A stretch of 62,786 bases of DNA from a virus, in IMG/VR virus record IMGVR_UViG_3300035429_000044, positions 1 through 62,786 of that record. The stretch is one strand, 5' to 3'. The notes under the pieces were generated by a model. That model had not been told where the DNA came from. It made no database searches and saw nothing but the letters and a program-made list of their open reading frames with translations. A program made the translations under genes and the position numbers. Positions 30,746 to 46,005 of this stretch are shown in pieces; positions within the stretch are counted from its first letter, which is position 1, and the number at the start of each line of letters is the position of its first letter.

Positions 30746-32641
30746 TCAGTACACGCGGAACGGAATGAACTGTGTCACGTCCTCTTCCTTCACGCCGTCG
30801 GTCAGATACCTGTTGCGCGCCGTATACGCGAGCAAACCAGCCATCATCGCATCAATCTTCTCCGGTGAGTTCGGTGTCTCCTTGAACACGAGATAGCCGA
30901 ACGAACGTTCACGTTTGCGCGCATTACGGAAATGCGCCACCAAACGCGGGTCGGCAAGCAACGCGATGGATGACACGTCCGGCTCGGCATGACGCGGCAC
31001 CTGCTTCATCTCATACGTGAAGTTCGCAGCCATGTTCACCAAACCCTGATACACGTCCCGAGACCAATTGTTCGTCCAATACTTGATCTTCGTACTGTTC
31101 CGGCCACGCGGGCCAACCGCGAGCTTGTCCGAAAAATCACGCTCCCACGCGTCAATCATGCTCTCCCACGGGTTCACATCAGCGAAGAACGCGACCACGT
31201 TGTAATGACCGAACATGTAACGCACCATGCCATCGAACGCCTCACGATCCACACGCCACTCAGCCGCACGCGCATCATCAGGCTTCTGCTCAAGTTTGAT
31301 CAGGAACAACAACCCATCACGCACACGGCACCCAACAAGCGCCGTGGAATCATCACTGATGGAACCATCGAAACCAAGCGTGATCTCGTCATCAGCATGA
31401 ATTACATTCTTCCAAGCATCCATCATCTGCCGGCGGTCACCAGACAAATACATGTCCTTACCCACCAAATGCGCTTGAATCTGCGATTCAGGAAGCCACG
31501 AATCCATCGCAGACGTCAACGAGTTCAAATAGAAACGAATCGCCTCGGACGGGTCGGAACCAGCATTCAGGATATAGCTCTTCGGCTTATCCATGATGAC
31601 CCAACCGTTCTTCGACGGTCCAGGCTCAACACCCGGCGACGCCAACGAATACCCTTCATCGTCCTTGCCGGTACGCGGATTCACGCGGGTGATACGCCCA
31701 TCGGGAAGAATCAGATGATCGTACCCATCAGATGATTTCATCACCGAACCATGCGATTCCATCAACGCATGTTCCAGCTTCTTCTCATTGCCCAGCTCCT
31801 CGATGGGCAACGACGCATAACGATGATCGAACAATGTGCGCTGATCATGCTTGACCTTGCCCTCGGCAATCGACCACGCCGTACGGTACGTGTCCTCAGC
31901 CAACGAGTTCAAACCCGGCTGGTACATCGTCGTCGTCTGCAACGACCACGGTTCATCCATACCACGCTTCGTCAGATTACGCAGCAACGTGCGCGCCATG
32001 CCCTTCGCACGGCCAACAAACAAATGCGACTCGTCAAGCACGGTGAACGTCTGCAAACCACCATCACGCGAAGACGCGCCACTCGTGGCCGGTTTGATCT
32101 CACCGCCACCGCACTCTTCTGGAATGATGATGCGCGTCTGTCCCACGTCCAAGCCGACGCCACGCAACTGCGCCAACGGGCCTTTCACGCAATTGTGGTA
32201 CACAACGTCATACACGTTGCCGGTCTGGTCCTCACTGTTCGCAGCCAACGCGATACGCGAGCCACGAATCAGACGCCCGACCGGCTCACCCTCCTGATAC
32301 ACATACTTGCGGCCAAGGAACGTGTACGTTTCCCCTGCTTCGGCCCAATGGTCGAACCGGCACGGGGCCAACGCCTCGAACAACACGATAAGCGCCGCCA
32401 AACCACTCTTGTTCGACCCCTTCGGACGCGACAGGAACACACGGTCGAACAAGCGATGCCCAGACTTATCCAGCGCATAACAGTTGACCAGGAACTCCGC
32501 ATACTCAGGCGTGAACACCATCGGCTCGTCCTCAGCAGGAGGCGAACCCACCACGCAAAACGTCTCAATCCACCAAATGGCGAAGAAGCCCATACTGCGG
32601 CGCTTCTGTTCCAACGTGACCTTGGGGATGATGTCATGCAC
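30746..32641 (-). CDS. terL: Terminase large subunit
   Basis: 631 aa. It has an ATPase-like N-terminus (..SRPKGSNKSGLAALIV..) and a nuclease-like C-terminal half. The start is GTG with a GGGGGTGA RBS. Confidence 0.9.
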   Translation of the reverse strand: MHDIIPKVTLEQKRRSMGFFAIWWIETFCVVGSPPAEDEPMVFTPEYAEFLVNCYALDKSGHRLFDRVFLSRPKGSNKSGLAALIVLFEALAPCRFDHWAEAGETYTFLGRKYVYQEGEPVGRLIRGSRIALAANSEDQTGNVYDVVYHNCVKGPLAQLRGVGLDVGQTRIIIPEECGGGEIKPATSGASSRDGGLQTFTVLDESHLFVGRAKGMARTLLRNLTKRGMDEPWSLQTTTMYQPGLNSLAEDTYRTAWSIAEGKVKHDQRTLFDHRYASLPIEELGNEKKLEHALMESHGSVMKSSDGYDHLILPDGRITRVNPRTGKDDEGYSLASPGVEPGPSKNGWVIMDKPKSYILNAGSDPSEAIRFYLNSLTSAMDSWLPESQIQAHLVGKDMYLSGDRRQMMDAWKNVIHADDEITLGFDGSISDDSTALVGCRVRDGLLFLIKLEQKPDDARAAEWRVDREAFDGMVRYMFGHYNVVAFFADVNPWESMIDAWERDFSDKLAVGPRGRNSTKIKYWTNNWSRDVYQGLVNMAANFTYEMKQVPRHAEPDVSSIALLADPRLVAHFRNARKRERSFGYLVFKETPNSPEKIDAMMAGLLAYTARNRYLTDGVKEEDVTQFIPFRVY

Positions 32642-32660: not shown

Positions 32661-33086
32661 TCAGCCGCCAAGAATCGAGTTACGCAGCCCGTTCATACGT
32701 TCGGCACTCACATCGTTCACATCGGCGCCACCACCGGCGGCCATCTGGTTCGGGTCAGGCGCATCCCATTTCAACGCGTGCCGCGCCATCGGTGTAATAC
32801 CGAACGCGTTCTCACGCGCACGAATCTCCGCAGCCATCTGCGCACCAGGACGCCGGTAGAAGCAATCCTTCAAAAACACCAAGTCAAGCACCGACTGCCA
32901 ATCCAAGTCAGTGCCCATCTTCAACGCCTGTGGACTACGACGAAACTCCTCATAGTATTCAATCGAGTTAGGCAACCATTCCTTGCCATCAGGGCGCAAT
33001 CCCGGCATCTCAGGGCCACGCACTAAACCATCCCATTTAAGCGTCTCGCCGTTTACCCGCGATGCGCTTCTTCCTTGCCCTGCCAT
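32661..33086 (-). CDS. terS: Terminase small subunit
   Basis: An ATG at 33086 has a GAGGA RBS. 141 aa, immediately upstream of terL. Confidence 0.65.
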   Translation of the reverse strand: MAGQGRSASRVNGETLKWDGLVRGPEMPGLRPDGKEWLPNSIEYYEEFRRSPQALKMGTDLDWQSVLDLVFLKDCFYRRPGAQMAAEIRARENAFGITPMARHALKWDAPDPNQMAAGGGADVNDVSAERMNGLRNSILGG

Positions 33087-33582
33087 TCGCCGTCCTCGCT
33101 TCCCAACGAGCCTTGCACGCGATATGCAACGGCACCCTGTTCTCCAACACCGGTTCACCACCGGCCTCCAACGGCAACAACCATCCAGACGCACACGGGC
33201 CACTACGATCAATCAGCTTGTAACATTCGACACACACGCCATCAGACGCGGCCAACACGTCAGCGTTCGAAAACACCATCGTCACCGGCTCAGGTTCCAC
33301 CGGTTCAGGTTTGAACACATCCTCAGTGGTTATCACTTTGTTCAATCCACGACGTGGCGCATTGCCTTTACGCTTCGCACGCATATACCGCATACGGCAA
33401 GCCGCCCCACAAAAATCCTTAGCCTGGTTCCCCACGTCGAAATACGTGCCGCACATGAAACACAGCTTCTTCTTCTGCACCGGCTTCACAATCCGCCCAT
33501 GATACCGAACCATGTCATAATGCTTCCGACATAAGCCACGCGAACACTCAACCCGCGTGCACCCCTCAACCGAACACGTCAT
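33037..33582 (-). CDS. Cys-rich (zinc-finger-like) hypothetical protein
   Basis: 181 aa, with an ATGA overlap with the HNH stop. It has several CxxC pairs. Confidence 0.6.
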   Translation of the reverse strand: MTCSVEGCTRVECSRGLCRKHYDMVRYHGRIVKPVQKKKLCFMCGTYFDVGNQAKDFCGAACRMRYMRAKRKGNAPRRGLNKVITTEDVFKPEPVEPEPVTMVFSNADVLAASDGVCVECYKLIDRSGPCASGWLLPLEAGGEPVLENRVPLHIACKARWEARTANGRARKKRIAGKRRDA

Positions 33583-33914
33583 TTGAACGCGGGATGATCG
33601 TAGAACGCCGCATCCCTCCTCCGCTCGGCCGCACGCCGCTTGCCACGCGTGCTCTCCACCTGCGTCTTGATATTGTGGTGCTCGTGGCACAACGACCACA
33701 AGCGGCTCAACCGGTCATCATCATGCACCATGTTCTGTGCCATATGATCGACCTCATTCGCTGGACGACCACAAATACCAGCCGGGAACCCATTCGTATC
33801 AGTCACCGGCCACTGGCAGCGGTACCCGTCACGCTCCAACACCTTCACACGAACCTTCGCCCAACCCTTATTGAAACGCTTCTTACGTTGAGACGAACTC
33901 CAAGGCATCAGCAT
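33579..33914 (-). CDS. HNH endonuclease (terminase-associated)
   Basis: It carries ..RDGYRCQWP...EVDHM...LWSLCHEHHNIKT... A start at 33914 or 33908 is chosen because the track start at 33974 would overlap tRNA-Ser. Confidence 0.8.
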   Translation of the reverse strand: MLMPWSSSQRKKRFNKGWAKVRVKVLERDGYRCQWPVTDTNGFPAGICGRPANEVDHMAQNMVHDDDRLSRLWSLCHEHHNIKTQVESTRGKRRAAERRRDAAFYDHPAFK

Positions 33915-33933
33915 CACCCCCAACCAGCAAAAG

Positions 33934-34026
33934 CGGATAGTGCACGATTCGAACGTGCGGAACACGGAGTTCACCGCATTCGACGCATTAGCAATGCGCT
34001 GCTATAGACCACTCAGCCAACTATCC
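33934..34026 (-). tRNA. tRNA-Ser (anticodon GCU), class II with long variable arm
   Basis: I folded it by hand. Acceptor GGATAGT/ACTATCC plus discriminator G. Anticodon stem GCGCA/TGCGT with loop TTGCTAA. T-arm GCACG-TTCGAAT-CGTGC. 93 nt, CCA not encoded. Confidence 0.8.
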
Positions 34027-34137
34027 AAAGCGGGGCGTTCCAGAAAGAACCGAAAGAAGCGGAACACCCCTGATTACAAGAACCCGACCGTTGAAAGGAA
34101 CGGAAACGAGAAGGGAACACCTACACGGTCGGGCCAG

Positions 34138-34211
34138 TACCGGAAGCGGGATTCGAACCCGCACTACAACGATTTTGAGTCGCTTGCCTCTACCAATTGG
34201 GCCACACCGGC
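34138..34211 (-). tRNA. tRNA with anticodon CAA but class I (short variable arm) architecture; identity uncertain
   Basis: T-arm GCGGG-TTCGAAT-CCCGC. Anticodon stem AGCGA/TCGTT with loop CTCAAAA. D-loop AATTGGTAG. The acceptor stem has two G:U pairs and one U:U mismatch. Confidence 0.55.
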
Positions 34212-34216
34212 GCACA

Positions 34217-34429
34217 TCAAGGAGCGTCGAACGCGTCCGCGAAAGCGATGATGCCAGCACGGACACGTTCACGCAACCTATCGGTATCTATGACGGCATA
34301 AGCACCAGACCCGGAGTTAATGACCCGCATAGGCGGGGTCACTTCCACACTGCCGAGCGGATTATCACAGTCCTTGGCACAGAAACTGACGGTCATGGTC
34401 GGAAGGGAAGAATCGCAATGATCTACCAT
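34217..34429 (-). CDS. Hypothetical small protein (70 aa)
   Basis: ORF with a GAGGGTGG RBS-like motif. It ends 5 nt before the tRNA and could be spurious. Confidence 0.35.
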   Translation of the reverse strand: MVDHCDSSLPTMTVSFCAKDCDNPLGSVEVTPPMRVINSGSGAYAVIDTDRLRERVRAGIIAFADAFDAP

Positions 34430-34531
34430 GACACACCACCCTCGAAGCCAACAATGGTTAGTGAAGAACCACAGCGTCTAATCAGTGATGTGGTTGAGAG
34501 ATTTTGGCGTGCTATCAGAACGACGCCATAA

Positions 34532-34546
34532 GATACCATAGGTATC
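34532..34546. promoter_or_regulatory. Perfect palindrome gatacc-ata-ggtatc
   Basis: Read directly from the sequence, in the non-coding region upstream of the late/packaging genes. Confidence 0.4.
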
Positions 34547-34570
34547 ATACCACACTTTTTGTTGCAGTGT

Positions 34571-34618
34571 GCGTTTCAACTAGCGTTTCAAAGAGCGTTT
34601 CACTTTGCGTTTCAACCT
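34571..34618. repeat. Four phased 12-bp direct repeats (GCGTTTCA + 4 nt)
   Basis: Copies start at 34571, 34583, 34595 and 34607: gcgtttcaacta / gcgtttcaaaga / gcgtttcacttt / gcgtttcaacct. Confidence 0.9.
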
Positions 34619-34722
34619 CAACCCTACTGCCGATTGGGATTCGAGAAAAGTGTTACGCCGTTTCCAAATAGTCTCAGAGCGCATTCACAGTCAGAACCAG
34701 AACCCCAAGCGGCCATTTCTAT

Positions 34723-34728
34723 ATTATA
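34723..34728 (-). promoter_or_regulatory. Consensus -10 hexamer TATAAT on the minus strand (candidate late/tRNA promoter)
   Basis: The plus strand reads attata. No convincing -35 is present. It lies 22 nt from the R/Y tract. Confidence 0.3.
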
Positions 34729-34749
34729 CGGGGTACCCTCCCCTGCCCC

Positions 34750-34875
34750 TATGCGTACGCGCACATGCGTACGCGCACATGCGTACGCGTACACGCGCAC
34801 ACGCGCACACGCGTACACACGCGTACACACGCGCGCACACGCGTACACACGCGCACACGCGCACACGCGTACGCG
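34750..34875. repeat. 126-bp perfect alternating pyrimidine/purine tract built from ACGCG(C/T)AC-type units
   Basis: Counted base by base. The alternation is unbroken from t34750 to g34875, followed by a further 14 nt after one break. Confidence 0.95.
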
Positions 34876-34952
34876 ACACGCGCGCACACCGCCTGATATG
34901 ACTGCCCGCGGGCCTGATATGTGCCCCGATATGCGTTGCGCGACACGCCGAT

Positions 34953-35017
34953 AAACACTAGTGTTTCCAACGGTTTTACCTAACCAACTTGCTAACGTTT
35001 TGGTTAGCGTGTATAGT
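34953..35017 (+). promoter_or_regulatory. Strong sigma70-type promoter with flanking/overlapping inverted repeats for the + strand island
   Basis: -35 TTGCTA (34989..34994), a 17-nt spacer and -10 TATAGT (35012..35017). A 14-bp palindrome aaacactagtgttt lies at 34953..34966. The inverted repeat ctaaccaa/ttggttag (34980..34987 / 35000..35007) brackets the -35. Confidence 0.6.
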
Positions 35018-35024
35018 CATAACC

Positions 35025-35322
35025 ATCAACCAAACAAACCACCGAGAAAGGAACCGAGATGAAACGGATACAGACCACCTGAAGCCACTCGCGAGGGTTA
35101 ACCCGTAACCCCCGAGCCGGAGCCGAGAGGCAAGCACCAGCGGGCAGCGTAGAGTGACGTTGCGGCAGTGACCACTGGAATAGCAGCCACGGCAACCGGC
35201 CGAGACATAACCGGACCCCCTCAAGCTCACAAGATACAGAGCGCGGGACAACTGAAGAGTGTTGAATGTACATACAGCCAACTCCGCTAGTACAATCGTA
35301 AGCACACTGGAAAGGTGCAAAC
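35025..35322 (+). ncRNA. ~300-nt T-poor untranslated leader / candidate structured RNA
   Basis: There is no plausible ORF on either strand. I counted 15 T in the 180 nt 35041..35220. The motif CCGAG occurs five times, and there is a self-complementary gggttaaccc. Confidence 0.35.
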
Positions 35323-35517
35323 ATGGGACTAGCAGAGTTGCGAAAAAGCAAGAACCTGACTCAGAGAGAGTTAGCGGAACGTGCGGGCATATCGAACGTC
35401 ACAATCGCTAATTACGAGCGCGGCGATAGAGATACCGGCAATATGACGCTACGCAATGCGATACGCATTGCGGACGCTCTTAAGGTTAGGGACTTGCGAA
35501 AACTGTTGGACGATTAA
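35323..35517 (+). CDS. XRE/Cro-type HTH regulator (64 aa)
   Basis: LRKSKNLTQRELAERAGISNVTIANYERG is a classic HTH_3 pattern. Confidence 0.85.
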   Translation: MGLAELRKSKNLTQRELAERAGISNVTIANYERGDRDTGNMTLRNAIRIADALKVRDLRKLLDD

Positions 35518-35528
35518 CAGTCGTCCTG

Positions 35529-35619
35529 GCGCTAGTGGGTTTAGCCCTACCGGCTCGTAACCGGACTAGCGCACGGCTAATAAAAGGATTCCCCCGGGAA
35601 GGGGCAACTTCCCGGGGGA
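35529..35619 (+). terminator. Two strong stem-loops after the HTH gene (attenuator/terminator or processing site)
   Basis: The first has an outer stem gcgctagt/actagcgc with an inner ccgg..ccgg. The second is a 12-bp stem tcccccgggaag-gggcaa-cttcccggggga. No clear U-run follows. Confidence 0.35.
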
Positions 35620-35700
35620 TAAAGCCAAAAATACTAACCGTTTTCGGCTCTCTGATTGTATCACATGGGGGCCGATACAAGCTAATCAGAGGTGATTACC

Positions 35701-36117
35701 ATGCGTAACCTGACTATTTCCATCAACATCGAGTACAAGCGTAACCGCACGTGGGGCTGGAATCCCACGGCTACGGTTACTGCGGTGCTGGACGGCGTGA
35801 GGACCGACACGACCACTGGCAAGGCGAGCGGCTGGGGTTATGACAAACTCAGCGCCGCTGTATGCCGCGCGTTCAGCGAGAACCCACTACTTCAGACGCT
35901 GCTCATGTGGGACGGTTGGCAGACCGACACAGAGGCGTACGGTCCAGCTGTGGTGCGTGAGCATGAATGGTCGTTCGGTGGCATGGGTATGAGCGCTCTG
36001 CTCAGACATCTGCGCGCGAACGGCTGCCATGTCACTGAAACGCTGGACAAGCAATGCGATCCCGTAGCGTACACGGCTACGCGCGACATGCCGGCGTCGT
36101 TTGTTGCGCTTGTCTGA
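35701..36117 (+). CDS. Hypothetical protein (138 aa)
   Basis: An ATG at 35701 has an AGAGGTG RBS (the track start at 35692 is a GTG). Confidence 0.65.
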   Translation: MRNLTISINIEYKRNRTWGWNPTATVTAVLDGVRTDTTTGKASGWGYDKLSAAVCRAFSENPLLQTLLMWDGWQTDTEAYGPAVVREHEWSFGGMGMSALLRHLRANGCHVTETLDKQCDPVAYTATRDMPASFVALV

Positions 36118-36228
36118 CCACTTCACCAGGGCGGCGCTAGTCGTCGCCCTTCTCGCCCATATCGGGCTTCTTCAAACCAACAATCTTGCCGCAATGTTGC
36201 GGCCGCTCATAGAAGGAACTGACCTTAA

Positions 36229-36669
36229 ATGCGTACTGATATTCATGACATCGAACAAGCTGTTCGCGAGATGATGGATCGTGTCTACGTGGATGGCGTC
36301 GCGGTTGATTACACGACACAGATCATCGAGTCGAACCCGCCGCGTGAGGCTGACTCTGTAGCGCTCTACATGGGCGACACGGAACGCGCATGGGATATTG
36401 TGGGGCAGCGGTTCTACGATGCTCCAGACTGCTGGCTGTCGTTCGCGATCCTCGTCGATGATGAGGACGGTGGGACGATTGCCGTCTACCAGCATGACGG
36501 GTCCGGTTATGCGGATGTGCTGGACTACATCGAGATTGATACCAGTTTCGTGGGATCCGACGGCCCGGCAATCGAGCATGTCGAGTCCGAACAGCTCTAT
36601 GCGGGGCTGCATATCCGCGAGACACTCAACTATATCAAGCGTGTCATGCTCAACGGGAAGGCGGCGTGA
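36229..36669 (+). CDS. Acidic hypothetical protein (146 aa, net charge about -19)
   Basis: ORF with an ATG start. D/E-rich. Confidence 0.65.
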   Translation: MRTDIHDIEQAVREMMDRVYVDGVAVDYTTQIIESNPPREADSVALYMGDTERAWDIVGQRFYDAPDCWLSFAILVDDEDGGTIAVYQHDGSGYADVLDYIEIDTSFVGSDGPAIEHVESEQLYAGLHIRETLNYIKRVMLNGKAA

Positions 36670-36857
36670 CCATGCGTGCGATACTCTCAGCGATCTGTGT
36701 TGTGGCGGCTCTTGTGGTCGCCACGGCGTTCCCTCAAGTTATCCCGCCGTGTGAGTTTGAGGACGGCAGCGGCCAGGCTGTGTGCTACTGGGATGCAGCT
36801 ACGTCGGGGAATGGGCGTGGCGAGTCGTATCTCATGGTTGGTGGTGAGCGGCTATGA
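36666..36857 (+). CDS. Small secreted/lipoprotein-like protein (63 aa)
   Basis: It has an N-terminal signal-like segment (MRAILSAICVVAALVVATAF) and is GTGA-coupled to the upstream gene. Confidence 0.55.
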   Translation: MTMRAILSAICVVAALVVATAFPQVIPPCEFEDGSGQAVCYWDAATSGNGRGESYLMVGGERL

Positions 36858-37063
36858 GCAGATTGTTCGACGTGCTTGCCGTTGTGGCTTACGCACTGTT
36901 TGTCGGATTCATGGGCTGGAGTGCGTTGAATCCGGCGAGTGTAGATCAAACGGGATGCTTGGTGTCGTTTGGTGTGCTGTGCGCTCTGCCGGCGTTCTTG
37001 GTTGGTCAGCGTTCGCCGCGCACGCCGCGTCGTGTTTCATCCAGCCCGGTTTATCCTGACTGA
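36854..37063 (+). CDS. Small membrane protein (69 aa, two hydrophobic helices)
   Basis: ATGA coupling; segments VLAVVAYALFVGFMGW and VSFGVLCALPAFLV. Confidence 0.55.
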   Translation: MSRLFDVLAVVAYALFVGFMGWSALNPASVDQTGCLVSFGVLCALPAFLVGQRSPRTPRRVSSSPVYPD

Positions 37064-37128
37064 CTTCAATATGCTGCCGCGTCCATTTCGGTCGCGTCGT
37101 ACTGTGGACTATCGGTGAAGACTATTAT

Positions 37129-37299
37129 GTGCCGTCTGCCGGGGTGAACCGTTTCCTTTTTGGGTATCGGCTTTTCAATGCCGAGGGGAAATCGGTTCGT
37201 GCGGGTGTTCGTGCCCTTGACCTTGTGATGGATACCGACTTGGGTTGTGATTTCGCGCAGCTGCTCGAAACGAACGCTGAGATCGACGCGTTGCGTTGA
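37129..37299 (+). CDS. Possible small protein (56 aa, GTG start) or gene remnant
   Basis: It reads VPSAGVNRFLFGYRLFNAEGKSVRAGVRALDLVMDTDLGCDFAQLLETNAEIDALR, which is protein-like. It is below the track cut-off and is followed by two hairpins (37322..37353, 37380..37402). Confidence 0.3.
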   Translation: MPSAGVNRFLFGYRLFNAEGKSVRAGVRALDLVMDTDLGCDFAQLLETNAEIDALR

Positions 37300-37424
37300 C
37301 TCTCAAACCCATAGATGAAGTGAGCGGCAGCCGTAAGTGCTGTGCTGCCGCTCGATGCTGAGCATTGCCTATTGTGTCAGCCGTCTCATGATAGCAGACG
37401 GCACTAGTTGAAAGAAGAAATATC

Positions 37425-38183
37425 ATGGATAAGCGAGAGTTGCGTTCGATTGTTGAGCGTGTGGTGTCGTTTGCGGCTGGACGTGTGCCGTTTGAGGTTG
37501 AGCTCAGGTCATTCACGGTTGAGCATGGTTTCATGGATGCCGTGTTTGTGGTGGATGGTCGTGAGCTGGCGCTCGATACGTCGGCTGAGGATGAGGTGTC
37601 GGTGGCGCACATGTTGGCTGTTGAGGCTGAGTGGCGTGCGCGTGATGTGCAGCGCGGGTTTAATGTGGTGAACCTGTTGACGCAATGGTGGCGTGCTGAA
37701 GCCGGGTATGACATGGAAGATTTGCGGGATACCGCATTCAGTGTCGAGGCGATTGGTGAGAAGTTGGACGCGGTTCGTGAGCATGTCATGGCGGCTGTTG
37801 AATCGGATTCCGAATATTATAGGAATCTGTTGAAGTTGGCTGAAGTGTTGCGCGCGTATTCGGATCGTGTGAAGCTGACTGAGTTCGGTCAGATCATGCA
37901 GGGCATGGTTGAAACGGCTGTGGTGTCTGAGAATGGCACGTGGTTTGTTGAGACTGAGGACTTCGTTGGTGAGGGTGCTTGGCATCCCGAAGCGTGGAGT
38001 GAGTTCTTGGAGGACTTGGATGCGTTGCGCTCACGGTTCGGCGCTGACATGGTGGATAACCTGATTACAGTGGCGCCGGGCTTTGACCCAACGAATGAGG
38101 CGACGTGGCCGGCTGATGGTATCGCGGCGACGTTCTACGGGGACTTCCTGAAGCTGTTTGATACAGCTGACCTTGAGGCGTGA
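37425..38183 (+). CDS. Acidic hypothetical protein (252 aa)
   Basis: ORF with a GAAAGAAG RBS. Confidence 0.7.
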   Translation: MDKRELRSIVERVVSFAAGRVPFEVELRSFTVEHGFMDAVFVVDGRELALDTSAEDEVSVAHMLAVEAEWRARDVQRGFNVVNLLTQWWRAEAGYDMEDLRDTAFSVEAIGEKLDAVREHVMAAVESDSEYYRNLLKLAEVLRAYSDRVKLTEFGQIMQGMVETAVVSENGTWFVETEDFVGEGAWHPEAWSEFLEDLDALRSRFGADMVDNLITVAPGFDPTNEATWPADGIAATFYGDFLKLFDTADLEA

Positions 38184-38332
38184 GCCTTGCGGCCATTGTG
38201 TCGGGCGATAATGCGGCACGGTAAGATAATGAGCGAGGCCGCCATTCGTGGTGGCGGCCTCTGCTAATTTCCAGTCAATTCGATGTGCTCGAATTAGTTT
38301 CGAGCATATCACACAAAGGAAGTGTGATTACG

Positions 38333-38953
38333 ATGGGTAAGCATAAGAGTGTTGAAGCGCGGCGGCTTACGGAGCTTGGGCAAGGCTTGTACGCATGGTC
38401 CAAGGTGATGACGGGTATTTTTTTCAACAATCCTATGAGCGTGGCTGACTGTTCCTCTAAGGCAGCTATGCGTGAGATAGCGTTGATGGATGATACCTAC
38501 GAGAATCGTGAGCTGTTACGTGAGTCTGCATACCGTTGCGGTCTGCCTGAACGTGAGGCTGACGCGCTTGCACAGTGGGCTAAAAGCCCGGACGTGCTCA
38601 AGTATGGGCGGTCAAGCATGCGCTGTGAGCTTGCTGAGTACGTGCGGGGCACGTGGCCTGATGTTGAGGATTTGGCTGATGCGATCATGGACACTGATGG
38701 TGTTGATTCCAGTATGGTCATTGACAGCTCTAGGATGCTTCTCGAACGCGGTGACGTCCTGTTGCATGTGGCCTTGGATTGGGATGCTGCTGAATCTATT
38801 GCCATGTCTTGTCCTGATTTGGATAATCCGCCGATTGGTATTGCTATGGCTGTGAACGCTGGCGATGTTGAGCACATGGTGTGCGCCACTGTTGACCAGG
38901 CTGTAAACGCTGTGGTGGATCGTATTCATCGTCTTGATATGGAAGGAAAGTGA
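38333..38953 (+). CDS. Hypothetical protein (206 aa)
   Basis: An ATG at 38333 follows an AAAGGAAG RBS. The track start at 38285 lies inside the hairpin gctcgaa-ttagt-ttcgagc. Confidence 0.65.
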   Translation: MGKHKSVEARRLTELGQGLYAWSKVMTGIFFNNPMSVADCSSKAAMREIALMDDTYENRELLRESAYRCGLPEREADALAQWAKSPDVLKYGRSSMRCELAEYVRGTWPDVEDLADAIMDTDGVDSSMVIDSSRMLLERGDVLLHVALDWDAAESIAMSCPDLDNPPIGIAMAVNAGDVEHMVCATVDQAVNAVVDRIHRLDMEGK

Positions 38954-39453
38954 TTCAAATGGTGAAGACTGTTGAGGAAGTGTATGGTGTTGGTGCGATG
39001 CGCGGCTTTGATCCGGTGAAGGCGGCTGAGGCTCGTGAGCAGTGGATGCCGGCTGATTTGAGCGCGTTGGGTGACCCGGATAAGATGCACCCGTACTACT
39101 TGGAGAAGGCTGAGGAAGTGCGGCAACGTTTCAAGTTCGATGCTGATGCGGACATGCGTTGGTTGGCGTTGTGGGCTGAGCACTGGGATGAACTGCCGGC
39201 ACGGCAGCGGATTGCTATTGCGGATTCCACTGGGACTATCTGGGGGTTCGCGGTGCCGGCGTTGGAGCCGAGGGCGGTTGAGGTCGTGGCGCGTGAGACG
39301 TGTGACCGGCTGCGCCTTGGTGACTATGGCGAATACCCTGAGCTGGGTTTCGGGCTCGTGAGGATTGAGCAGCGTGTGTGCCGCCCGGTGGTTGTGGTGC
39401 GTGATTGGCTGTTTCATGGCCCGTCGAACCATCGTAAGGAGGTGCGGTCATGA
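38950..39453 (+). CDS. Hypothetical protein (167 aa)
   Basis: GTGA coupling with the upstream stop, after a GGAAGGAAA RBS. An alternative ATG lies at 38959. Confidence 0.65.
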   Translation: MIQMVKTVEEVYGVGAMRGFDPVKAAEAREQWMPADLSALGDPDKMHPYYLEKAEEVRQRFKFDADADMRWLALWAEHWDELPARQRIAIADSTGTIWGFAVPALEPRAVEVVARETCDRLRLGDYGEYPELGFGLVRIEQRVCRPVVVVRDWLFHGPSNHRKEVRS

Positions 39454-40061
39454 GTGGGCCGGTTGAGTATCGTGAAGCGGACGGCAAGGTTCGTGTGAAG
39501 TCGCCGTATTCTGCTGAGTTTGTCCGGTTGGCGAAACAGTCGGGCGGCAAGTGGGATGCGGCCGGTAGGGCGTGGGTGTGGGATGTGGCGAATGCCGATC
39601 TTGCGAAGCGCGCGGTGTTGGATTGTTATGGGATTGATATCAATGACGGGATTGCCCCACATTTGGTGACTGTCGAGGTGGATGCGGGCGTATTGCCTGA
39701 AGATGATGGCCGGCTGTTGTTGGACGGTGTGACGTTGGCGCGCCGGTATGGTCGTGACGATCCGGTGCGGTTGGCGTCGAACGTCGTGGTCATCGAAGGC
39801 GCGTTCCCGTCGTATGGTGGTTCGCGTGCCCATCCGGCTGTGTGTGCCCCTGAGGGTACGTGGCTGCGGGTGCGTGACGTGCTGCCGTCGCAGTTGGCAT
39901 GCTTGCGCGCCAATTACGATGCTGCCGACTGGCGTTTGGTGACGCCTGAATCGGAGCGTGTAGCCGTGTTGCGTCGTGAACGTGCGGAGCTCGTGGCGCG
40001 GCTGGAGAAGATCGACGCGGAGTTGGCGAGCCTGGACACTGAGAGTGGTGTGGAATCATGA
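39450..40061 (+). CDS. Hypothetical protein (203 aa) with a small N-terminal KxxYxxxFVxxAKxxGGKWDxxxxxWxW-type domain
   Basis: ATGA coupling. The N-terminus VKSPYSAEFVRLAKQSGGKWDAAGRAWVWDV resembles short domains seen at primase/topoisomerase termini (DUF5710-like, from memory). Confidence 0.6.
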   Translation: MSGPVEYREADGKVRVKSPYSAEFVRLAKQSGGKWDAAGRAWVWDVANADLAKRAVLDCYGIDINDGIAPHLVTVEVDAGVLPEDDGRLLLDGVTLARRYGRDDPVRLASNVVVIEGAFPSYGGSRAHPAVCAPEGTWLRVRDVLPSQLACLRANYDAADWRLVTPESERVAVLRRERAELVARLEKIDAELASLDTESGVES

Positions 40062-40930
40062 GCCGGAAGAAGGATATGATCCCGTTCTCACCTCTCTATG
40101 AGCCGTTGATTCGTGACCGGTATCGTGACAAGTATGTGGTTGAATCAGCGGCCCAGTATGCGCGGTGGCGTGGCTCGGATTCGATGCAGGGCATGTTGGC
40201 TGCGGATTATGCGGCACAATTTGAGGCTCTTGAGTCTGCCGGCATGTATTTTGCGAGGTCGGATATGGTGTCGTTGGCGGTCGCGGCGATGCTTGACGGT
40301 GACGTGCCACAGGTGGCGCCGCCTTCCCCCAGCGGGTTCCTCTTGTTGGAGGGTGGTGTGCGCCCGTTGGGACATGCTGGCGCGGATGCGCCCATGATCT
40401 ACGGGTTCCTCTGGTTCGTTGGCGTGGATGGTGGCTTGCAGTACGCGATGATTCCTGACGTGCTGTTCCCGCCGATTGGCGTGCGGGTTCCGCAGGTGCG
40501 CATGCAGGGGCACGTGAATGTGTGGCGTGACATGGCGGCGTTCAAAGAGCGTGACGTGCATGGTGCGCCGCAGGAAGAGGCGTTGCTGCGGACAATGTTC
40601 GCGTTGTGGGCTGAGCCGCGCGTGTGTGAGGTGGGTGAGCCACGTCCTGAACGGTTGGCTCGCGTGTCCTCGCGTGTGGTGGAGGCCGCGCGGCATGTGC
40701 GTGTGGTGGATGTGCGGGAGCATGACGAGCCGGAGCGTGAGGTGGCTACGGATGGCGTACGCAAGTACCGACCGTACGATCATCGGTTCATTGTGTCTGG
40801 GCATTGGCGTGAGCAAGCGTATGGGCCGAATCATAGTGAGCGGCGGCGCCAGTGGATCGCCCCGTTTGTGAAGGGGCCGCGTGATAAGCCGCTGGTGTTG
40901 AAGGATACGGTGCGTGTGTGGCGAAGCTGA
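40058..40930 (+). CDS. Hypothetical protein (290 aa), intact paralogue of 1915..2663
   Basis: ATGA coupling. The conserved basic C-terminus reads HRFIVSGHWREQAYGPNHSERRRQWIAPFVKGPRDKPLVLKDTVRVWRS. Confidence 0.75.
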   Translation: MSRKKDMIPFSPLYEPLIRDRYRDKYVVESAAQYARWRGSDSMQGMLAADYAAQFEALESAGMYFARSDMVSLAVAAMLDGDVPQVAPPSPSGFLLLEGGVRPLGHAGADAPMIYGFLWFVGVDGGLQYAMIPDVLFPPIGVRVPQVRMQGHVNVWRDMAAFKERDVHGAPQEEALLRTMFALWAEPRVCEVGEPRPERLARVSSRVVEAARHVRVVDVREHDEPEREVATDGVRKYRPYDHRFIVSGHWREQAYGPNHSERRRQWIAPFVKGPRDKPLVLKDTVRVWRS

Positions 40931-40937
40931 GAACAGT

Positions 40938-40980
40938 GAAGGGGCCGGACGCCTGTTGGGTGTCTGGCCCCTTCTGTTTT
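40938..40980 (+). terminator. Intrinsic terminator closing the + strand island
   Basis: gaaggggcc ... ggccccttc is followed by tgtttt. It is convergent with the minus-strand early operon. Confidence 0.7.
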
Positions 40981-41112
40981 GCCGTTGGCTGTGTACGCCA
41001 CTGGCTTTGTCAACTTGTTTTTTAACTGTGTTTTTGTGTCATGTTTTTCTTGCGTACGTGCGCGTTGGCGGTGTCTCGCACGGGTCTGCCGCCACACGTT
41101 TTATATCATGGT

Positions 41113-41892
41113 TTATTTATTCATTTTTAGGTACCGGTTGTAGACGTCGGAGAGCAGGTAGCGTCCGGTGGGTTCACCGTCCGGCGTGGTGGTCTGCTGG
41201 ATTTCGCCACGGTATGCCCATGTGCGGATGGTGTTGGCGTTGATGTCGATGCCGAATTGGCCGAGCATGGCCGGTAGTTCGCCGGGTTTGCCTTCCTCGC
41301 TGCTGGCGAGTAGTTGTTGGCTGGTGGCGCGGCGGAGCATGGCTGTGGTCCACGTGTTGTTGCAGTGCGGGCAGCGGGCGTCTTTGGCGTCGGGTGCGGC
41401 GTAGACGGGTTGTGCGCAGTCGGGGTTGAGGCAGTTGCCGACGTGGATGCGGGTTTCGTCCATGATGGCGATCGTGGATCGCAGCCGGTTGGTGAGCCGG
41501 TTGGTTTCTTTGGCGTAGACGGGGCTTGCGCTGGATTCCCACAGCTTGGGGTTGTCGCGCAAGAGTTGGGCTTGGCGGGCGAGGCAGCCGCGTGGCGCTG
41601 GCGGCTGGTTGAGGCATGTGGCCCATGTGTTCAGTGTTTCGAGGATGTTCCCGTCACGGTCGAGGTAGAGCAGGTCGTAGATGGTTTCGTGCAGGGGTGT
41701 GGGTGCTTCGCTGCGCCGTGCTCCCCCGTTGCCGCTCTTGTGCCCGCCGTAGGCGCGGTTGATGCGGTAGGTTTCGATGTCGGTCAGGTTGGTGGTGAGC
41801 CAGGTGAGGGTGGTGTGGGTGAGTGTTCGGCAGTCTTTGCAGGGGTTTACGGCGGTGTTGGGGGTGTGGCAGATGGTGCAGGTGGTGCTCAC
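41113..41892 (-). CDS. Zinc-finger plus C-terminal HTH-like protein (last early gene; possible late regulator)
   Basis: 259 aa. It has CxxC pairs at the N-terminus and in the middle (CPHCNN). The C-terminus reads ..IDINANTIRTWAYRGEI... Confidence 0.6.
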   Translation of the reverse strand: MSTTCTICHTPNTAVNPCKDCRTLTHTTLTWLTTNLTDIETYRINRAYGGHKSGNGGARRSEAPTPLHETIYDLLYLDRDGNILETLNTWATCLNQPPAPRGCLARQAQLLRDNPKLWESSASPVYAKETNRLTNRLRSTIAIMDETRIHVGNCLNPDCAQPVYAAPDAKDARCPHCNNTWTTAMLRRATSQQLLASSEEGKPGELPAMLGQFGIDINANTIRTWAYRGEIQQTTTPDGEPTGRYLLSDVYNRYLKMNK

Positions 41893-42410
41893 TCTTGGTT
41901 GCCTTTCTGGTTGGGGTTGAGATTGTCGAGCATGGTTCGCATGGTGTCTGCGAATCCTGTAATACCTCTGTTTGCGGTTTTTTGGGGGTTGTGAGCGTCT
42001 TTCGTGGTTAACGTGGGTGTCTTATCGTGTGCTGCCATGATAGCTCGTTCTCGGGCCTGTTTTGGCGTTTCGTTGTTCGCGAGGTGGTGGACGAGCGTGC
42101 GACGGTAGCGCAGTTCCGCCTCCGGGTCGCTGATCCCGTCCGCTTCGAGCAACCGGCACATGGTCGCCTCATCCGGCAGGCGCGCCGCCCTGTATCGTTT
42201 GCACAAGCGGTTCATGGCGGCGGCGCTCATCCATTTGCCTTCCGATGTCGCGTAGAAGTCGCGGATGGCGCGCCGCATGTCCGCCATGCTGTTGCGTGGG
42301 TCGAGTTCCGCGTGGAAGACGCGAACCATGTCCGGGTCGATGGGCGCGTTCCCGTGGTGCAAACGGATCACGGTCAGCAATTGGCTGGCTTCCTCAAGCG
42401 TGCAGCTCAT
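41889..42410 (-). CDS. Hypothetical protein (173 aa)
   Basis: ATGA-coupled ORF. Confidence 0.65.
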   Translation of the reverse strand: MSCTLEEASQLLTVIRLHHGNAPIDPDMVRVFHAELDPRNSMADMRRAIRDFYATSEGKWMSAAAMNRLCKRYRAARLPDEATMCRLLEADGISDPEAELRYRRTLVHHLANNETPKQARERAIMAAHDKTPTLTTKDAHNPQKTANRGITGFADTMRTMLDNLNPNQKGNQE

Positions 42411-42411
42411 G

Positions 42412-43011
42412 TCAGCCTTCCGGGTGGTCGCGGAAGTATTGCACCACGCCCATGTTGTGCGCGAGGTTCGCTTGTTCGCGGCTCAACCCCGGTGGTTGCG
42501 TGTTGGCGGCGGTTGTGGGGTTGCTCGCGCGCGTGCGCGTGGAGAGTGCGTTAGCACTCTTCCCACTACTACTCCTATCTCCTACTCCTACTCCTACTCC
42601 GGTAGCGAGTGTCTGGCAGTGTCTGGCAGTGTCTGGCAGTGTCTCGCGAGTGTCTGGCGAGACTTCCCGCACATCAGCCTCGTCAGGCGTGGGAAACAAG
42701 CAAACACTAGGATTGGTAATCTTCTGGTAGGTGAGGAAATTAGGCAGCCACAACAGGTGTTTACCACGCCACTCGTAGCGCACGATGCACCCCGCGTCTT
42801 CCAACTCATCCAACGCGGCTTCGATGCGTGGGATCACCTCGTCACCGTCATAGGGCATGCACGTGCCGCGAATCATGCGCGCGTTGTCCCGGTTCACGCC
42901 GTTGTCCTGCACGTACGACCAGAGGCATTCGAACACGAAGCGCGCGTCCCATGACACGTTCCCCATGCTTTCCGAGTCGTAGAACTCAGGTCTGATGCTG
43001 CGAATACGCAT
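42412..43011 (-). CDS. Replisome-organiser/DnaD-like protein (tentative) with an internal iteron array
   Basis: An ATG at 43011. The N-terminus MRIRSIRPEFYDSESMGNVSWDARFVFECLWSYVQDNGV resembles phage replication-organiser N-domains. A low-complexity linker is encoded by DNA repeats. Confidence 0.55.
   Translation of the reverse strand: MRIRSIRPEFYDSESMGNVSWDARFVFECLWSYVQDNGVNRDNARMIRGTCMPYDGDEVIPRIEAALDELEDAGCIVRYEWRGKHLLWLPNFLTYQKITNPSVCLFPTPDEADVREVSPDTRETLPDTARHCQTLATGVGVGVGDRSSSGKSANALSTRTRASNPTTAANTQPPGLSREQANLAHNMGVVQYFRDHPEG
42566..42658. repeat. Iteron-like array: five copies of GTGTCT(G/C)GC at 10-11-bp phasing plus hexamer (CTCCTA) repeats
   Basis: agtgtctggc occurs three times, followed by agtgtctcgc and gagtgtctggc (42608..42658), preceded by ctactactcctatctcctactcctactcctactcc. 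Confidence 0.85.
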
Positions 43012-43012
43012 G

Positions 43013-43216
43013 TCATTCGCCTTCCTTGCTTCCGTTCCAGGCTTTGATGAGGTCGGCGATGTTGGTGTAGTGGCCGGCGCGGATTCGTCCGCATTCGAGG
43101 CATTGGATGGTGACGATGCCACCTTCGTTCGACGCCAGTATGTGGCGTGCGAGCCGATCGCATTCGTTGGGGCATGGCTGGGGTTCGACGATGGTGTAGT
43201 CGAGTTCATTTCCCAT
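43013..43216 (-). CDS. Hypothetical Cys-containing protein (67 aa)
   Basis: Coupled ORF with CPNEC..CLEC motifs. Confidence 0.55.
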   Translation of the reverse strand: MGNELDYTIVEPQPCPNECDRLARHILASNEGGIVTIQCLECGRIRAGHYTNIADLIKAWNGSKEGE

Positions 43217-43487
43217 GATGGTGTTCCTTTCGTTGGTATTGGTGGGTTCTGAGTAGCTCTAGGGTGTCTTTTGGCGGGAGGTTGCGTGGGTCGATTGGTT
43301 CCGCGATGTAGAGGCACCGTAGAAGGGTTTCCGCTCGCCGCCACGCCGGCAGGTGGCTGTACATTCGCCAGACGCCGAGTAGTTCCTCGCTGGTTGAGCG
43401 TCGGTAGTTGGCGAACCTGTCTCGCGAGAGCGGGTAATGTTTTACGAATGCATTTGTTCCCTTGTTTTTTAATGTATTGTCTGTCAC
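43206..43487 (-). CDS. Hypothetical protein (93 aa)
   Basis: A GTG at 43487 forms a GTGA overlap with the upstream stop. The rest of track ORF 43206..43706 overlaps the preceding gene in another frame. Confidence 0.5.
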   Translation of the reverse strand: MTDNTLKNKGTNAFVKHYPLSRDRFANYRRSTSEELLGVWRMYSHLPAWRRAETLLRCLYIAEPIDPRNLPPKDTLELLRTHQYQRKEHHHGK

Positions 43488-43762
43488 GATGTTTTGTCTT
43501 CCGCGGGGAGCGTTTGGGGGAAGACATGGGTTTCTGTTTTCCCGTATCCGGTGCGTTTGATGGTGAGGTAGATCAGGATGCCGAAGATGATTACGGCAAT
43601 CAGGTCGATGGTGAGATACATGTAGTCGTGTCGTATGAGGTTCATGCCGGCGATGAACGCTTCGATGACGCCGAGGATGTAGTAGAGGCTGGCGCTGAAG
43701 AGGCATTGTGGTTTGGTGTCGAAGGTGAGGGTGGTGACCATCACGGTCTGTTGGTTGTTCAT
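43484..43762 (-). CDS. Small membrane protein (92 aa)
   Basis: ATGA coupling and two hydrophobic helices. Confidence 0.55.
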   Translation of the reverse strand: MNNQQTVMVTTLTFDTKPQCLFSASLYYILGVIEAFIAGMNLIRHDYMYLTIDLIAVIIFGILIYLTIKRTGYGKTETHVFPQTLPAEDKTS

Positions 43763-44121: not shown

Positions 44122-44123
44122 GG

Positions 44124-45333: not shown

Positions 45334-45358
45334 TGGTTGGTTCCTTTCATGATTGGGG

Positions 45359-45568: not shown

Positions 45569-45577
45569 GCTTCCTCC

Positions 45578-45763: not shown

Positions 45764-45786
45764 GTGGTGTCCTTACGTGTGCGTGG

Positions 45787-45993: not shown

Positions 45994-46005
45994 GTTTGTG
46001 TCCTT

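Follow-up and report, generated by a model that had tools for sequence, protein, structure and literature searches.

A conserved slot with mosaic content, ending in a probable remote AcrVA2/FinQ relative, between the early and late operons of a Bifidobacterium prophage

We analysed a block of ten plus-strand genes in a 62,786-nt stretch of viral DNA (IMG/VR record IMGVR_UViG_3300035429_000044, positions 1 to 62,786; hereafter the window, meaning the whole stretch), which represents a temperate siphovirus-type prophage of a Bifidobacterium. The block lies between the early and the late operon, both on the minus strand, and consists of a promoter (34989-35017), ten open reading frames (ORFs; g1 to g10, 35323-40930) and a terminator (40938-40974). 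Apart from the lysogeny genes, it is the sole plus-strand block inside the phage. Its features are given below, where counts of phages refer to a comparison of eight related phages and HTH stands for helix-turn-helix.

34953-34966: palindrome AAACACT/AGTGTTT in a block (GCGACACGCCGAT...) kept in 8/8 phages, ~22 bp upstream of the -35 hexamer
34980-35007: inverted repeat CTAACCAA/TTGGTTAG
34989-35017, plus strand: P1, sigma-70-type promoter TTGCTA-17-TATAGT, matching 9/12 consensus positions, with both hexamers aligning across relatives
34991-35008: putative operator GCTAAC-N6-GTTAGC, overlapping the -35 hexamer and the spacer
35267-35296, plus strand: second promoter-like site TGTACA-18-TACAAT, 27 nt upstream of g1 and ~250 nt from P1, with a conserved -10 hexamer
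35323-35517, plus strand: g1, 64 aa, XRE/Cro-C1-type HTH regulator (HTH_3, E 1.5e-14), in 8/8 phages
35529-35572, plus strand: three-way-junction-like element of 44 nt just after the g1 stop, kept in 8/8 phages
35590-35619, minus strand: GC-rich 12-bp hairpin with a T-run on the minus strand, terminator-like for leftward transcription
35701-36117, plus strand: g2, 138 aa, in 3/8 phages
36229-36669, plus strand: g3, 146 aa, acidic (pI 4.18, net charge -19), in 5/8 phages
36666-36857, plus strand: g4, 63 aa, hydrophobic signal-peptide-like N-terminus, phrog_19904 (function unassigned), in 4/8 phages
36854-37063, plus strand: g5, 69-aa membrane mini-protein, first two-thirds hydrophobic, in 6/8 phages
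37425-38183, plus strand: g6, 252 aa, acidic (pI 4.30, net charge -29), two-domain fusion
38333-38953, plus strand: g7, 206 aa, acidic (pI 4.59, net charge -15), in 3/8 phages
38950-39453, plus strand: g8, 167 aa, in 4/8 phages, with a truncated version joined to g10 in relative L004
39450-40061, plus strand: g9, 203 aa, phrog_18108 (4.7e-23), C-terminal coiled coil, in 4/8 phages
40058-40930, plus strand: g10, 290 aa, phrog_15934, probable distant AcrVA2/FinQ-family protein
40938-40974, plus strand: intrinsic terminator with a 17-bp stem (11 G-C pairs) followed by TGTTTTG, between the convergent block and early operon

For g2, the ATG was chosen over a GTG at 35692, and the start of g7 follows the gene call in L004 (the longest ORF starts at 38285). 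An earlier reading of this DNA, the original prediction, had described a tightly coupled operon with five 4-nt overlaps. The overlaps are all present (GTGA at 36666, ATGA at 36854, GTGA at 38950, ATGA at 39450 and ATGA at 40058), but gaps of ~183 nt between g1 and g2, 111 nt between g2 and g3, 361 nt between g5 and g6 and 149 nt between g6 and g7 divide the block into the units g1, g2, g3-g4-g5, g6 and g7-g8-g9-g10. The gap between g1 and g2 holds two conserved hairpin elements. Other parts of that description agree with our results: the content does comprise a tiny XRE regulator with an HTH_3 match, the acidic 146-aa and 252-aa proteins g3 and g6 and the hydrophobic mini-proteins g4 and g5; a clean terminator of 17 pairs (11 G-C) with a T-run faces the early operon at 40938-40974; and the flanks are on the minus strand, with TerS (the small terminase gene), an HNH-like gene and the endolysin on the late side and RecT, a YqaJ exonuclease and dCTP deaminase on the early side.

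Database searches returned little for the cargo. Searches of Pfam, NCBIfam and PADLOC (the latter at E <= 0.1) gave no match for g2 to g10, and among the PHROGs only g4, g9 and g10 matched families, all without an assigned function. The additional matches of g1 in PADLOC were to generic HTH models only, namely a restriction-modification control protein and capH. At the DNA level, positions 34500-41200 had no match among 50,697 phage records. No replication, recombination, structural, late-regulator or late-activator family was found among g2 to g10 in Pfam, PHROGs or NCBIfam, in line with the claim that this is not a structural or replication module. Profile searches against the Protein Data Bank (PDB) with g3, g8 and g9 gave nothing usable, the g9 tail producing a coiled-coil match only. 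Distant homologues of g9 were found in Fusobacterium phages, a Dolichospermum phage and phage SSIP-1 (listed loci: L092 1840-3319, L094 2998-4483 and L093 3686-4558). In the Fusobacterium phages JD-Fnp2 and FNU_1P, a small site-specific integrase gene follows the g9 homologue just after the holin gene, overlapping it in FNU_1P and 1 nt apart in JD-Fnp2, whereas in Salisaeta phage SSIP-1 the g9-homologous domain is inside gp41, annotated as a structural protein. A general pairing of g9 with a recombinase was considered and dropped, as it holds in JD-Fnp2 and FNU_1P but not in the Dolichospermum phage or SSIP-1. A comparison of g9 with orf223, an HTH-containing protein encoded near the left end of the window, was likewise negative.

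Relatives were found with g10 and the large terminase as probes, which gave seven further phages or prophages with enough flanking DNA. The eight compared were thus the window, L003, L004, L005, L007 (the same as L013; B. castoris), L009 (the same as L012; B. choerinum LMG 10510, a strain whose prophage is reported to be inducible), L010 and L011. In every one of them the block is encoded on the other strand from the terminase, flanked by the HNH/TerS genes on one side and a homologue of the 259-aa last early gene on the other, and starts with the XRE gene. The C-terminal domain of g6 also occurs in 8/8 phages (weakest in L003, 32% identity), and a g10 homologue sits at or next to the far end in the 7/7 phages in which that end was examined, the DNA of L010 stopping short of it; there the g10 homologue either closes the block or precedes a small recombinase gene. 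Only the XRE gene, the g6 C-domain and the g10-like gene are found in all or nearly all phages. The other genes occur in 3 to 6 of 8, and each phage has further genes without a family match; nine such alternative cargo proteins of the sister phages had zero matches in Pfam and PHROGs.

The extent of the turnover is visible against L004, with which the flanks are 92-94% identical and the block 77-91%, with replaced segments and one deletion. Lost in the deletion are g9 and two-thirds of g10 from its N-terminus; what is left in L004 (9992-10537) reads in frame from the first 77 residues of g8 into the last 109 of g10. The two domains of g6 are encoded by neighbouring separate genes in L005, L007 and L011 (149-171 aa and 130 aa), while L009 has the 130-aa C-domain gene, with no N-domain homologue detected. 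The original prediction had suggested comparing related prophages for presence or absence of the island as a unit. Such a pattern was not seen: the slot is filled in 8/8 phages and only its internal genes vary; a constant small core combined with cargo turnover in a fixed place is not the behaviour of an element that comes and goes as a whole. The block is a conserved fixed slot with a mosaic middle. The original prediction had also stated that universal conservation in syntenic position together with matches to known replication or late-regulation families would speak against an autonomous cassette; the syntenic conservation was found, the family matches were not.

The block has its own promoter accompanied by inverted repeats, as had been proposed: TTGCTA-17-TATAGT is present, its hexamers are conserved in the eight phages, and three inverted repeats were found. 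In an alignment of the non-coding region, the -35 (TTGnnn) and -10 (TAnnnT) hexamers line up in 8/8 phages, and it is this conservation, not the 9/12 match score, that makes P1 credible. Just upstream of P1 lies the invariant block GCGACACGCCGA, with the palindrome AAACACTAGTGTTT. A palindrome in the spacer is present in 6/8 phages. In L011, whose XRE protein is 95% identical to g1, the operator half-sites are the same as the window's GCTAAC-N6-GTTAGC. In contrast, the XRE proteins of L003, L004, L005 and L009 are 61-75% identical to g1 and their spacer palindromes differ (GCATCATTAATGATGC in L003, GCGCT-N10-AGCGC in L004, AACTGGATATCCAGTT in L005 and CTTGC-N10-GCAAG in L009). Given that the palindrome changes in step with the divergence of the regulator, which is encoded within the operon in 8/8 phages (63-64 aa), the sequences suggest that the XRE protein represses its own promoter. 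The region from P1 to g1 folds only marginally better than shuffled sequences (z = -1.97).

Two conserved hairpin elements follow g1. The 35529-35572 element has a 7-bp outer stem and two inner hairpins, one with a 7-nt CUCGUAA loop; across the eight phages its 15 pairs are paired in 97.5% of cells, with compensatory changes in 3 pairs, compared with 22-44% in slid controls. It has no Rfam match. In an Rfam search of 33500-41500, the only hits were two tRNAs, besides low-complexity artefacts on an alternating tract upstream of P1. In the 35590-35619 hairpin, the stem sequence differs between phages while the structure and a GGGCAA loop are kept; the window, L003, L004 and L010 have the T-run on the minus strand, and L005 and L013 have one on each side. 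This hairpin and the terminator at 40938-40974 bracket the block and would keep read-through from the early operon out of the late operon. Two such leftward stops may make the slot a safe place for accessory genes. In L003 (11286-12704), an IS605-type TnpB gene (OrfB_IS605 plus a Cas12f1-like TNB domain) lies between the block terminator and the early operon, which suggests that this boundary tolerates insertions.

The most informative cargo protein is g10. A word index yielded 57 homologues, mostly from Bifidobacterium-type metagenomes, and 40 of these were aligned for AlphaFold2, giving a model with a pLDDT (predicted local distance difference test) of 83 and a pTM (predicted template modelling score) of 0.78. 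When this model was searched against the PDB with Foldseek, AcrVA2 alone fell below E 1e-3 (7ci2_A, 4e-4; 7ci1_B, 7.6e-4), with a probability of 0.92-0.94 over 332-342 aligned columns that span the full length, and the next PDB match had an E of 0.28. In BFVD, 13 proteins of 212-420 aa matched below 1e-3, none with a known function, nine being named as uncharacterized phage proteins and four nameless in the tables; proteins of jumbo Erwinia phages were just above this cut-off.

Profile comparisons point to the same family. AcrVA2-family alignments were built from sequences in the supplement of bioRxiv 10.1101/2022.11.29.518452, and hhalign of g10 against these profiles gave E values of 1.1e-3 to 3.2e-3. 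The score of 32.4 was reached by 0/100 column-shuffled controls (mean 14.2, sd 2.4, max 22.9), and a reversed profile scored 17.8. Relaxing the threshold extends the colinear alignment to 199-210 columns, in which AcrVA2 P104, P112, G138, H291, G298 and W309 are paired with g10 P84, P89, G116, H249, G256 and W266. The paired motifs include Y-x-x-x-x-D-M / I-Y-R-F-D-P-D-L, a P...P strand, G-F-x-W, the helix A-L-W-A-x-x-E-P / L-Y-L-C-x-x-E-P, G-H-W-R / [GA]-H-W-H and Q-W-I-A-P-F-V-K-G / R-W-L-P-P-I-x-V-N. AcrVA2 H291 thus corresponds to g10 H249 in a common G-H-W motif, and the spacing to W309 and W266 matches; AcrVA2 D89 aligns with g10 R67. When a hidden Markov model (HMM) of the AcrVA2 family was run over 6,952 ORFs, 11 of the 20 best weak matches were members of the g10 family, where ~0.3 would be expected. 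The global mode of hhalign was uninformative for this pair, and PDB profile searches with g10 and its C-terminus gave nothing usable, a match to AcrIF25 being non-significant (E 0.55).

The AcrVA2 family is borne on mobile genetic elements, has proteins of ~320 aa and includes megaphage proteins and the plasmid fertility inhibitor FinQ; the N-termini of its orthologues diverge, while the C-terminal H286/R288/H291 region is conserved and needed for activity and mRNA down-regulation (bioRxiv 10.1101/2022.11.29.518452). Like AcrVA2 (from a Moraxella bovoculi prophage; PDB 7CI1/7CI2) and FinQ (plasmid R820a), g10 is a multi-domain protein of ~300 aa with a C-terminal G-H-W and [RQ]-W-x-x-P-x-V at the same spacing, a G-F-x-W motif and an E-P helix, and both families are phage- and plasmid-borne, mostly in hosts without Cas12a. 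Unlike them, g10 has an extra conserved C-terminal tail, KGPxDKPLVxKDTV. From the predicted structure and the profile alignments, we conclude that g10 is probably a distant member of an AcrVA2/FinQ superfamily, the relationship being a remote one.

This family is large. An exhaustive search returned 10,909 clusters at E <= 1e-3, and homologues were located on 86 actinobacterial plasmid records in PLSDB (Mycobacterium, Streptomyces, Rhodococcus, Cutibacterium and Rothia), at 145 genomic loci in Actinomycetota and in the phages BigBern1 and PFR1. In these two phages, the g10 homologue is in a block that extends toward the lysis genes from the side of the repressor and integrase. Some homologues carry a precomputed PF26125 label, for which no mention was found in the literature. 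The part of the published list of ~1,800 AcrVA2 orthologues considered here contains one Actinomycetota-labelled entry (a Coriobacteriia metagenome-assembled genome) and no Bifidobacterium, Mycobacterium, Streptomyces, Propionibacterium or Bifidobacteriales. The link would therefore extend the AcrVA2/FinQ family to actinobacterial phage and plasmid proteins, for instance of Mycobacterium, Streptomyces and Cutibacterium, in which Cas12a is an unlikely target. For Bifidobacterium, a survey of 48 genomes listed the clustered regularly interspaced short palindromic repeat (CRISPR) types I-C, I-E, I-U, II-A and II-C and does not mention type V (PMC4521832), so that the target of g10 is probably not Cas12a. 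The family may in this way provide a handle on new targets of nascent-peptide-directed mRNA silencing.

The window holds a second g10-like sequence at its far left end, in a module (384-3502) made up of orf271, orf223, a decayed g10 paralogue and a tyrosine recombinase gene:

1257-1928, plus strand: orf223, HTH-containing protein, phrog_7950 (5.5e-6)
1921-2657, plus strand: decayed g10 paralogue
2585-3502, plus strand: tyrosine recombinase (PF00589, 7e-17), XerD-like, with no arm-DNA-binding domain detected

Here the original prediction was borne out: a decayed paralogue of the last gene (1921-2657) abuts the second recombinase (2585-3502). Using tblastn, residues 1-200 of g10 were aligned at 1921-2505 (32% identity, 8e-15) and, in a different frame, residues 255-289 at 2553-2657 (74% identity). 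The translation indicates that the decay involved an internal deletion of the GHW-motif region and a frameshift. In the blocks of L005, L007/L013 and L011, a recombinase 71-72% identical to the product of 2585-3502 is encoded directly after the g10-like gene, and the two genes overlap by 13 nt in L013, L005 and BigBern1. The same pair occurs in Bombiscardovia, and in Corynebacterium phocae by coordinates only and with weaker identity. An orf223-type HTH gene is directly upstream of g10-like genes in 7 distant actinobacterial loci. The full set of HTH, AcrVA2-like and recombinase genes was found at the far end of the window, where the AcrVA2-like gene is decayed, and in BigBern1; the sister-phage blocks have the AcrVA2-like gene and the recombinase, with no orf223 homologue detected. 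Besides the window module, the loci listed for this trio are L013 7881-9703 and L001 12001-13694. Its recurrence keeps alive a reading of the g10-like gene as part of a mobile cassette or as a recombinase accessory.

The second recombinase resembles Rin, the tyrosine invertase of bifidophage shufflons (Mavrich et al. 2018, PMC6109161), in being XerD-like with no arm-binding domain detected, and the Rin phages, like the window, have a canonical integrase as well. It differs from Rin in being paired with an AcrVA2-like gene and not with receptor-binding-protein cassettes. A Rin-type shufflon was rejected, as no rix sites (TTCCCTAACCC) are present in the window.

On its other side, the block faces a conserved non-coding region (~34500-34750) that adjoins the HNH and terminase genes in 8/8 phages, includes a G/C-rich block and ends in GGGGTACCCTCCCCTGCCCC. 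At 34571-34614 it contains four copies of GCGTTTCA at an exact 12-bp spacing, and the relatives have 4-5 copies of GCGTTGCA. We regard 34571-34614 as a candidate terminase-binding/cos or late-promoter region. In phages that pair HNH and terminase genes, cos is usually near them. If cos lies in this conserved region, the block would occupy the end of the virion DNA that is packaged last and injected first. Contig L006 stops at window-equivalent 34681, close to the repeat tract; this end was set aside as a cos marker, since it is perhaps a mere assembly break. Between this region and P1, ~110 bp upstream of the promoter and between the divergent late operon and the block, lies a perfect 126-bp alternating pyrimidine-purine tract (34750-34875; CGCGCACA/CGTACA type, Z-DNA-prone). 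Its length is 141 bp in L009, 28+46 bp in L005, 27+23 bp in L007 and 18+51 bp in L011; no alternating tract of at least 18 bp occurs in L003, L004 or L010.

Together, these results favour a reading of the block as a conserved, self-regulated accessory operon for inter-genome conflict, through anti-defence, exclusion of rivals or both, to which we assign a probability of about 0.5. The operon belongs to one lineage of temperate Bifidobacterium siphoviruses, where it occupies the early/late boundary, and is most likely not part of the core phage machinery. Of the options offered in the original prediction, anti-defence or host take-over is favoured by the operon's own promoter and terminator, by the absence of matches to replication, structural or late-regulation families and by the distant AcrVA2/FinQ likeness of g10. 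Under this reading, host RNA polymerase would start at the sigma-70-type promoter with no need for a phage factor. The g1 protein would bind the palindrome at the -35 hexamer and spacer and throttle the operon, as Aca proteins do at anti-CRISPR promoters, and the small acidic and membrane products may act on host or competitor targets. By analogy with AcrVA2, g10 could bind the nascent N-terminal peptide of one target and trigger loss of the target mRNA. The 3' terminator and the leftward-facing hairpin after g1 would stop antisense read-through, so that the slot could serve as a harbour in which cargo is swapped. Expression in the lysogen would fit the strand that the block shares with the repressor and integrase genes, and also the way AcrVA2 acts, namely by blocking new synthesis of its target protein.

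The kind of locus, an accessory or anti-defence locus of a mobile element with an HTH autoregulator, is known. What is new here is the fixed yet mosaic slot in this phage lineage, the remote AcrVA2/FinQ link of a large actinobacterial family and the recurrence of this family beside HTH and armless recombinase genes. Among known systems, the operons of anti-CRISPR (acr) and anti-CRISPR-associated (aca) genes are alike in having a small HTH regulator within the operon, a palindrome over the promoter core, carriage on prophages and a cargo of small, fast-evolving genes without known domains. They differ in that the HTH gene of the block comes first and not last, and in that the block has 10 genes over 5.6 kb in a fixed slot in 8/8 phages. 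The Aca-like character of g1 is putative, and any inhibition of CRISPR-Cas would be by analogy with AcrVA2, to which g10 is remotely related. Host take-over regions at the leading end of the genome include the gene 0.3/ocr region of T7 and the first-step-transfer pre-early genes of T5, and the right arm of mycobacteriophage L5 is read from P-left at the right cos end. Such regions likewise have a promoter for the host polymerase and small acidic proteins and are read inward, probably from near a genome end as here. The block differs from them in belonging to a temperate phage, in having the orientation of the lysogeny genes, in lacking any sequence relationship and in having only a putative cos.

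A bolder version, which we consider doubtful, would make the block a counter-defence operon at the first-injected end, with g10 representing an unrecognised actinobacterial branch of AcrVA2/FinQ of ~10,000 clusters, directed at a target other than Cas12a, and several of the acidic proteins being new inhibitors of Bifidobacterium defences. CRISPR-Cas systems are carried by 77% of Bifidobacterium species, and many spacers target prophages (48-genome survey, PMC4521832); for bifidophages, no lytic propagation host has been reported (PMC6109161). If true, counter-defence would help to account for the ready lysogeny of bifidophages, for which plaque formation has not been observed. Our literature searches found no characterised bifidophage anti-defence protein. 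Bifidobacteria are key gut commensals, and a fixed, self-regulated slot with fast-changing genes is a natural starting point in the search for them.

Several results weigh against the conflict operon that we favour. The number of promoter-like matches in the region, six where 3.9 +/- 1.7 are expected, is not an enrichment, and the position of cos in this phage is only putative. Eight of the ten block proteins gave no functional clue; the AlphaFold2 model of g6 was poor (pLDDT 51), and Foldseek gave nothing below E 0.07 for it. The likeness of g10 to AcrVA2 has its own difficulties. The global TM-score is ~0.3 with a root-mean-square deviation of 13 A, which means that the domain orientation differs or that the match is partial; the 'probability' reported by hhalign is just 10-20%; and HMM-to-sequence searches between g10 and the AcrVA2 family were not significant in either direction. 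AcrVA2 H286 and R288 are absent from g10 at the aligned positions, which hold F244 and V246, with H242-R243 two residues upstream, and a sister clade has GFWR instead of GHWR, so that F replaces H249. AcrVA2 W79 is not conserved in g10 and is outside the aligned region, and an AcrVA2-like activity of g10 is putative. The translational coupling of the g10-like gene to a recombinase in the sister phages hints at a different or additional role, and the presence of the block in every relative examined is compatible with a core function.

How far other explanations account for the same data can be judged from the content and position of the block. A lysogenic-conversion or superinfection-exclusion cassette would be expressed from the prophage and protect the lysogen against other phages or plasmids; this overlaps with the operon for inter-genome conflict and differs from it in beneficiary and timing. 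The location on the repressor/integrase strand, opposite to all lytic operons, would suit such a cassette, as would the host-type promoter, the secreted and membrane mini-proteins g4 and g5, the role of the AcrVA2 homologue FinQ as a plasmid fertility inhibitor (bioRxiv 10.1101/2022.11.29.518452) and the g10-like genes of PFR1 and BigBern1, which are in a repressor/integrase-side block converging on the lysis genes. Nevertheless, the lack of PADLOC matches for g2 to g10 and the dominance of acidic cytoplasmic proteins speak against it, and a place beside the putative cos end suits a role at the time of infection equally well, so that we consider this explanation unlikely. Morons and other prophage-expressed cassettes, such as lambda bor and lom and the prophage-mediated defence genes of mycobacteriophages, share with the block their own promoter and terminator, an orientation opposite to the lytic operons and the absence of matches to core functions. 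The block, however, fills the slot in all relatives examined and, far from being a single gene, comprises a ten-gene operon with its own regulator. The suggestion of a moron expressed in the lysogen, in the sense of a sporadic insert, is contradicted by a slot that is filled in 8/8 phages.

That same constancy speaks for a core regulatory module, for example a second immunity/anti-repressor region or a late-transcription switch; the divergent late promoter would be controlled by g1, and the lytic cycle would depend on the conserved genes. The slot is the same in 8/8 relatives, and the block there faces the late operon's start directly; the intervening non-coding region has very conserved blocks and repeats spaced by 12 bp; and the XRE gene, the g6 C-domain and g10 occur in all or nearly all phages. 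The content, by contrast, is mosaic: L004 is without g9 and has g8 fused to the C-terminus of g10, and g6 is split or fused depending on the phage. No match to a known late regulator, anti-repressor or replication protein was obtained, and most of the g10 family is carried on plasmids and chromosomes across Actinomycetota, at odds with a role specific to the phage cycle. We regard such a module as improbable. Another origin would be the remnant of a hitch-hiking cassette of HTH, AcrVA2-like and armless recombinase genes that inserts at two preferred places; the copy in the block would have lost its recombinase and the far-end copy its AcrVA2-like gene. In accordance with this, recombinase orthologues (71-72%) follow the g10-like gene in L005, L007/L013 and L011, with the pair also in BigBern1 and Bombiscardovia, orf223-type HTH genes precede g10-like genes in seven distant loci, and the window has an intact g10 without a recombinase and a decayed one with it. 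Yet the boundaries of the block, namely the non-coding region on the HNH side and the terminator ahead of the last early gene, are the same in all relatives, with or without a recombinase, and the XRE gene, the promoter and the g6 C-domain are lineage-conserved and not cassette-like. There are no Rin-type rix sites. The only repeat search was for inverted repeats in 1-9000, and attachment-like (att) sites or repeats around the block, a criterion for satellites, were not searched for; the ORFs of the block include no recombinase. The remnant envisaged in the original prediction has only indirect support, from sister phages whose blocks have a gene for an armless tyrosine recombinase at their 3' end, whereas the window block has none; overall we consider it very improbable. 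It is a possibility that the HTH, AcrVA2-like and armless recombinase genes together form a new mobile cassette moving between two hot spots of the phages.

The remainder of the window is organised as a temperate phage genome. Its protein homologues are named from B. pseudocatenulatum and B. moukalabense, and the nearest genomes at the species level are B. choerinum and B. castoris. The main neighbouring features are:

4887-5876, minus strand: endolysin, on the late side with the lysis genes
minus strand: tail and head genes of the late operon
30746-32641, minus strand: TerL (large terminase)
32661-33212, minus strand: TerS
33579-33974, minus strand: HNH-like gene
33933-34026, minus strand: phage-encoded tRNA Ser-GCT, upstream of the HNH gene
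34137-34211, minus strand: phage-encoded tRNA Leu-CAA, upstream of the HNH gene
41113 to ~58.3 kb, minus strand: early operon, with dCTP deaminase, RecT, YqaJ exonuclease and an HTH_36 replication-type protein
58958-59536, plus strand: HTH_3 repressor candidate
61565-62659, plus strand: canonical integrase

The two tRNA genes are preceded by a 70-aa ORF (34217-34429, minus strand) that is kept in relatives. The lysogeny genes at 58.5-62.7 kb, on the plus strand, comprise the repressor candidate, a HIRAN protein and the integrase. The stretch between the repressor candidate and the integrase (60330-61556) encodes this HIRAN-domain protein (PF08797, 9.6e-11) together with a small protein whose resemblance to a metallopeptidase is weak (DUF6782, E 9e-4, which does not reach the Pfam cut-off). 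Two sequences resembling tRNA T-arms (GTTCGAGTCCC...) lie in inverted orientation at 6-22 and 1514-1530, at the left edge of the window; ARAGORN called no tRNA at either, and they may be remnants of an attachment site. Finally, the early operon at 41000-48000 has a positive GC skew and a strongly negative AT skew on the plus strand, although its genes are on the minus strand. The skew of the late operon (12-34 kb) is the opposite, and the two lytic operons thus differ in coding-strand composition.

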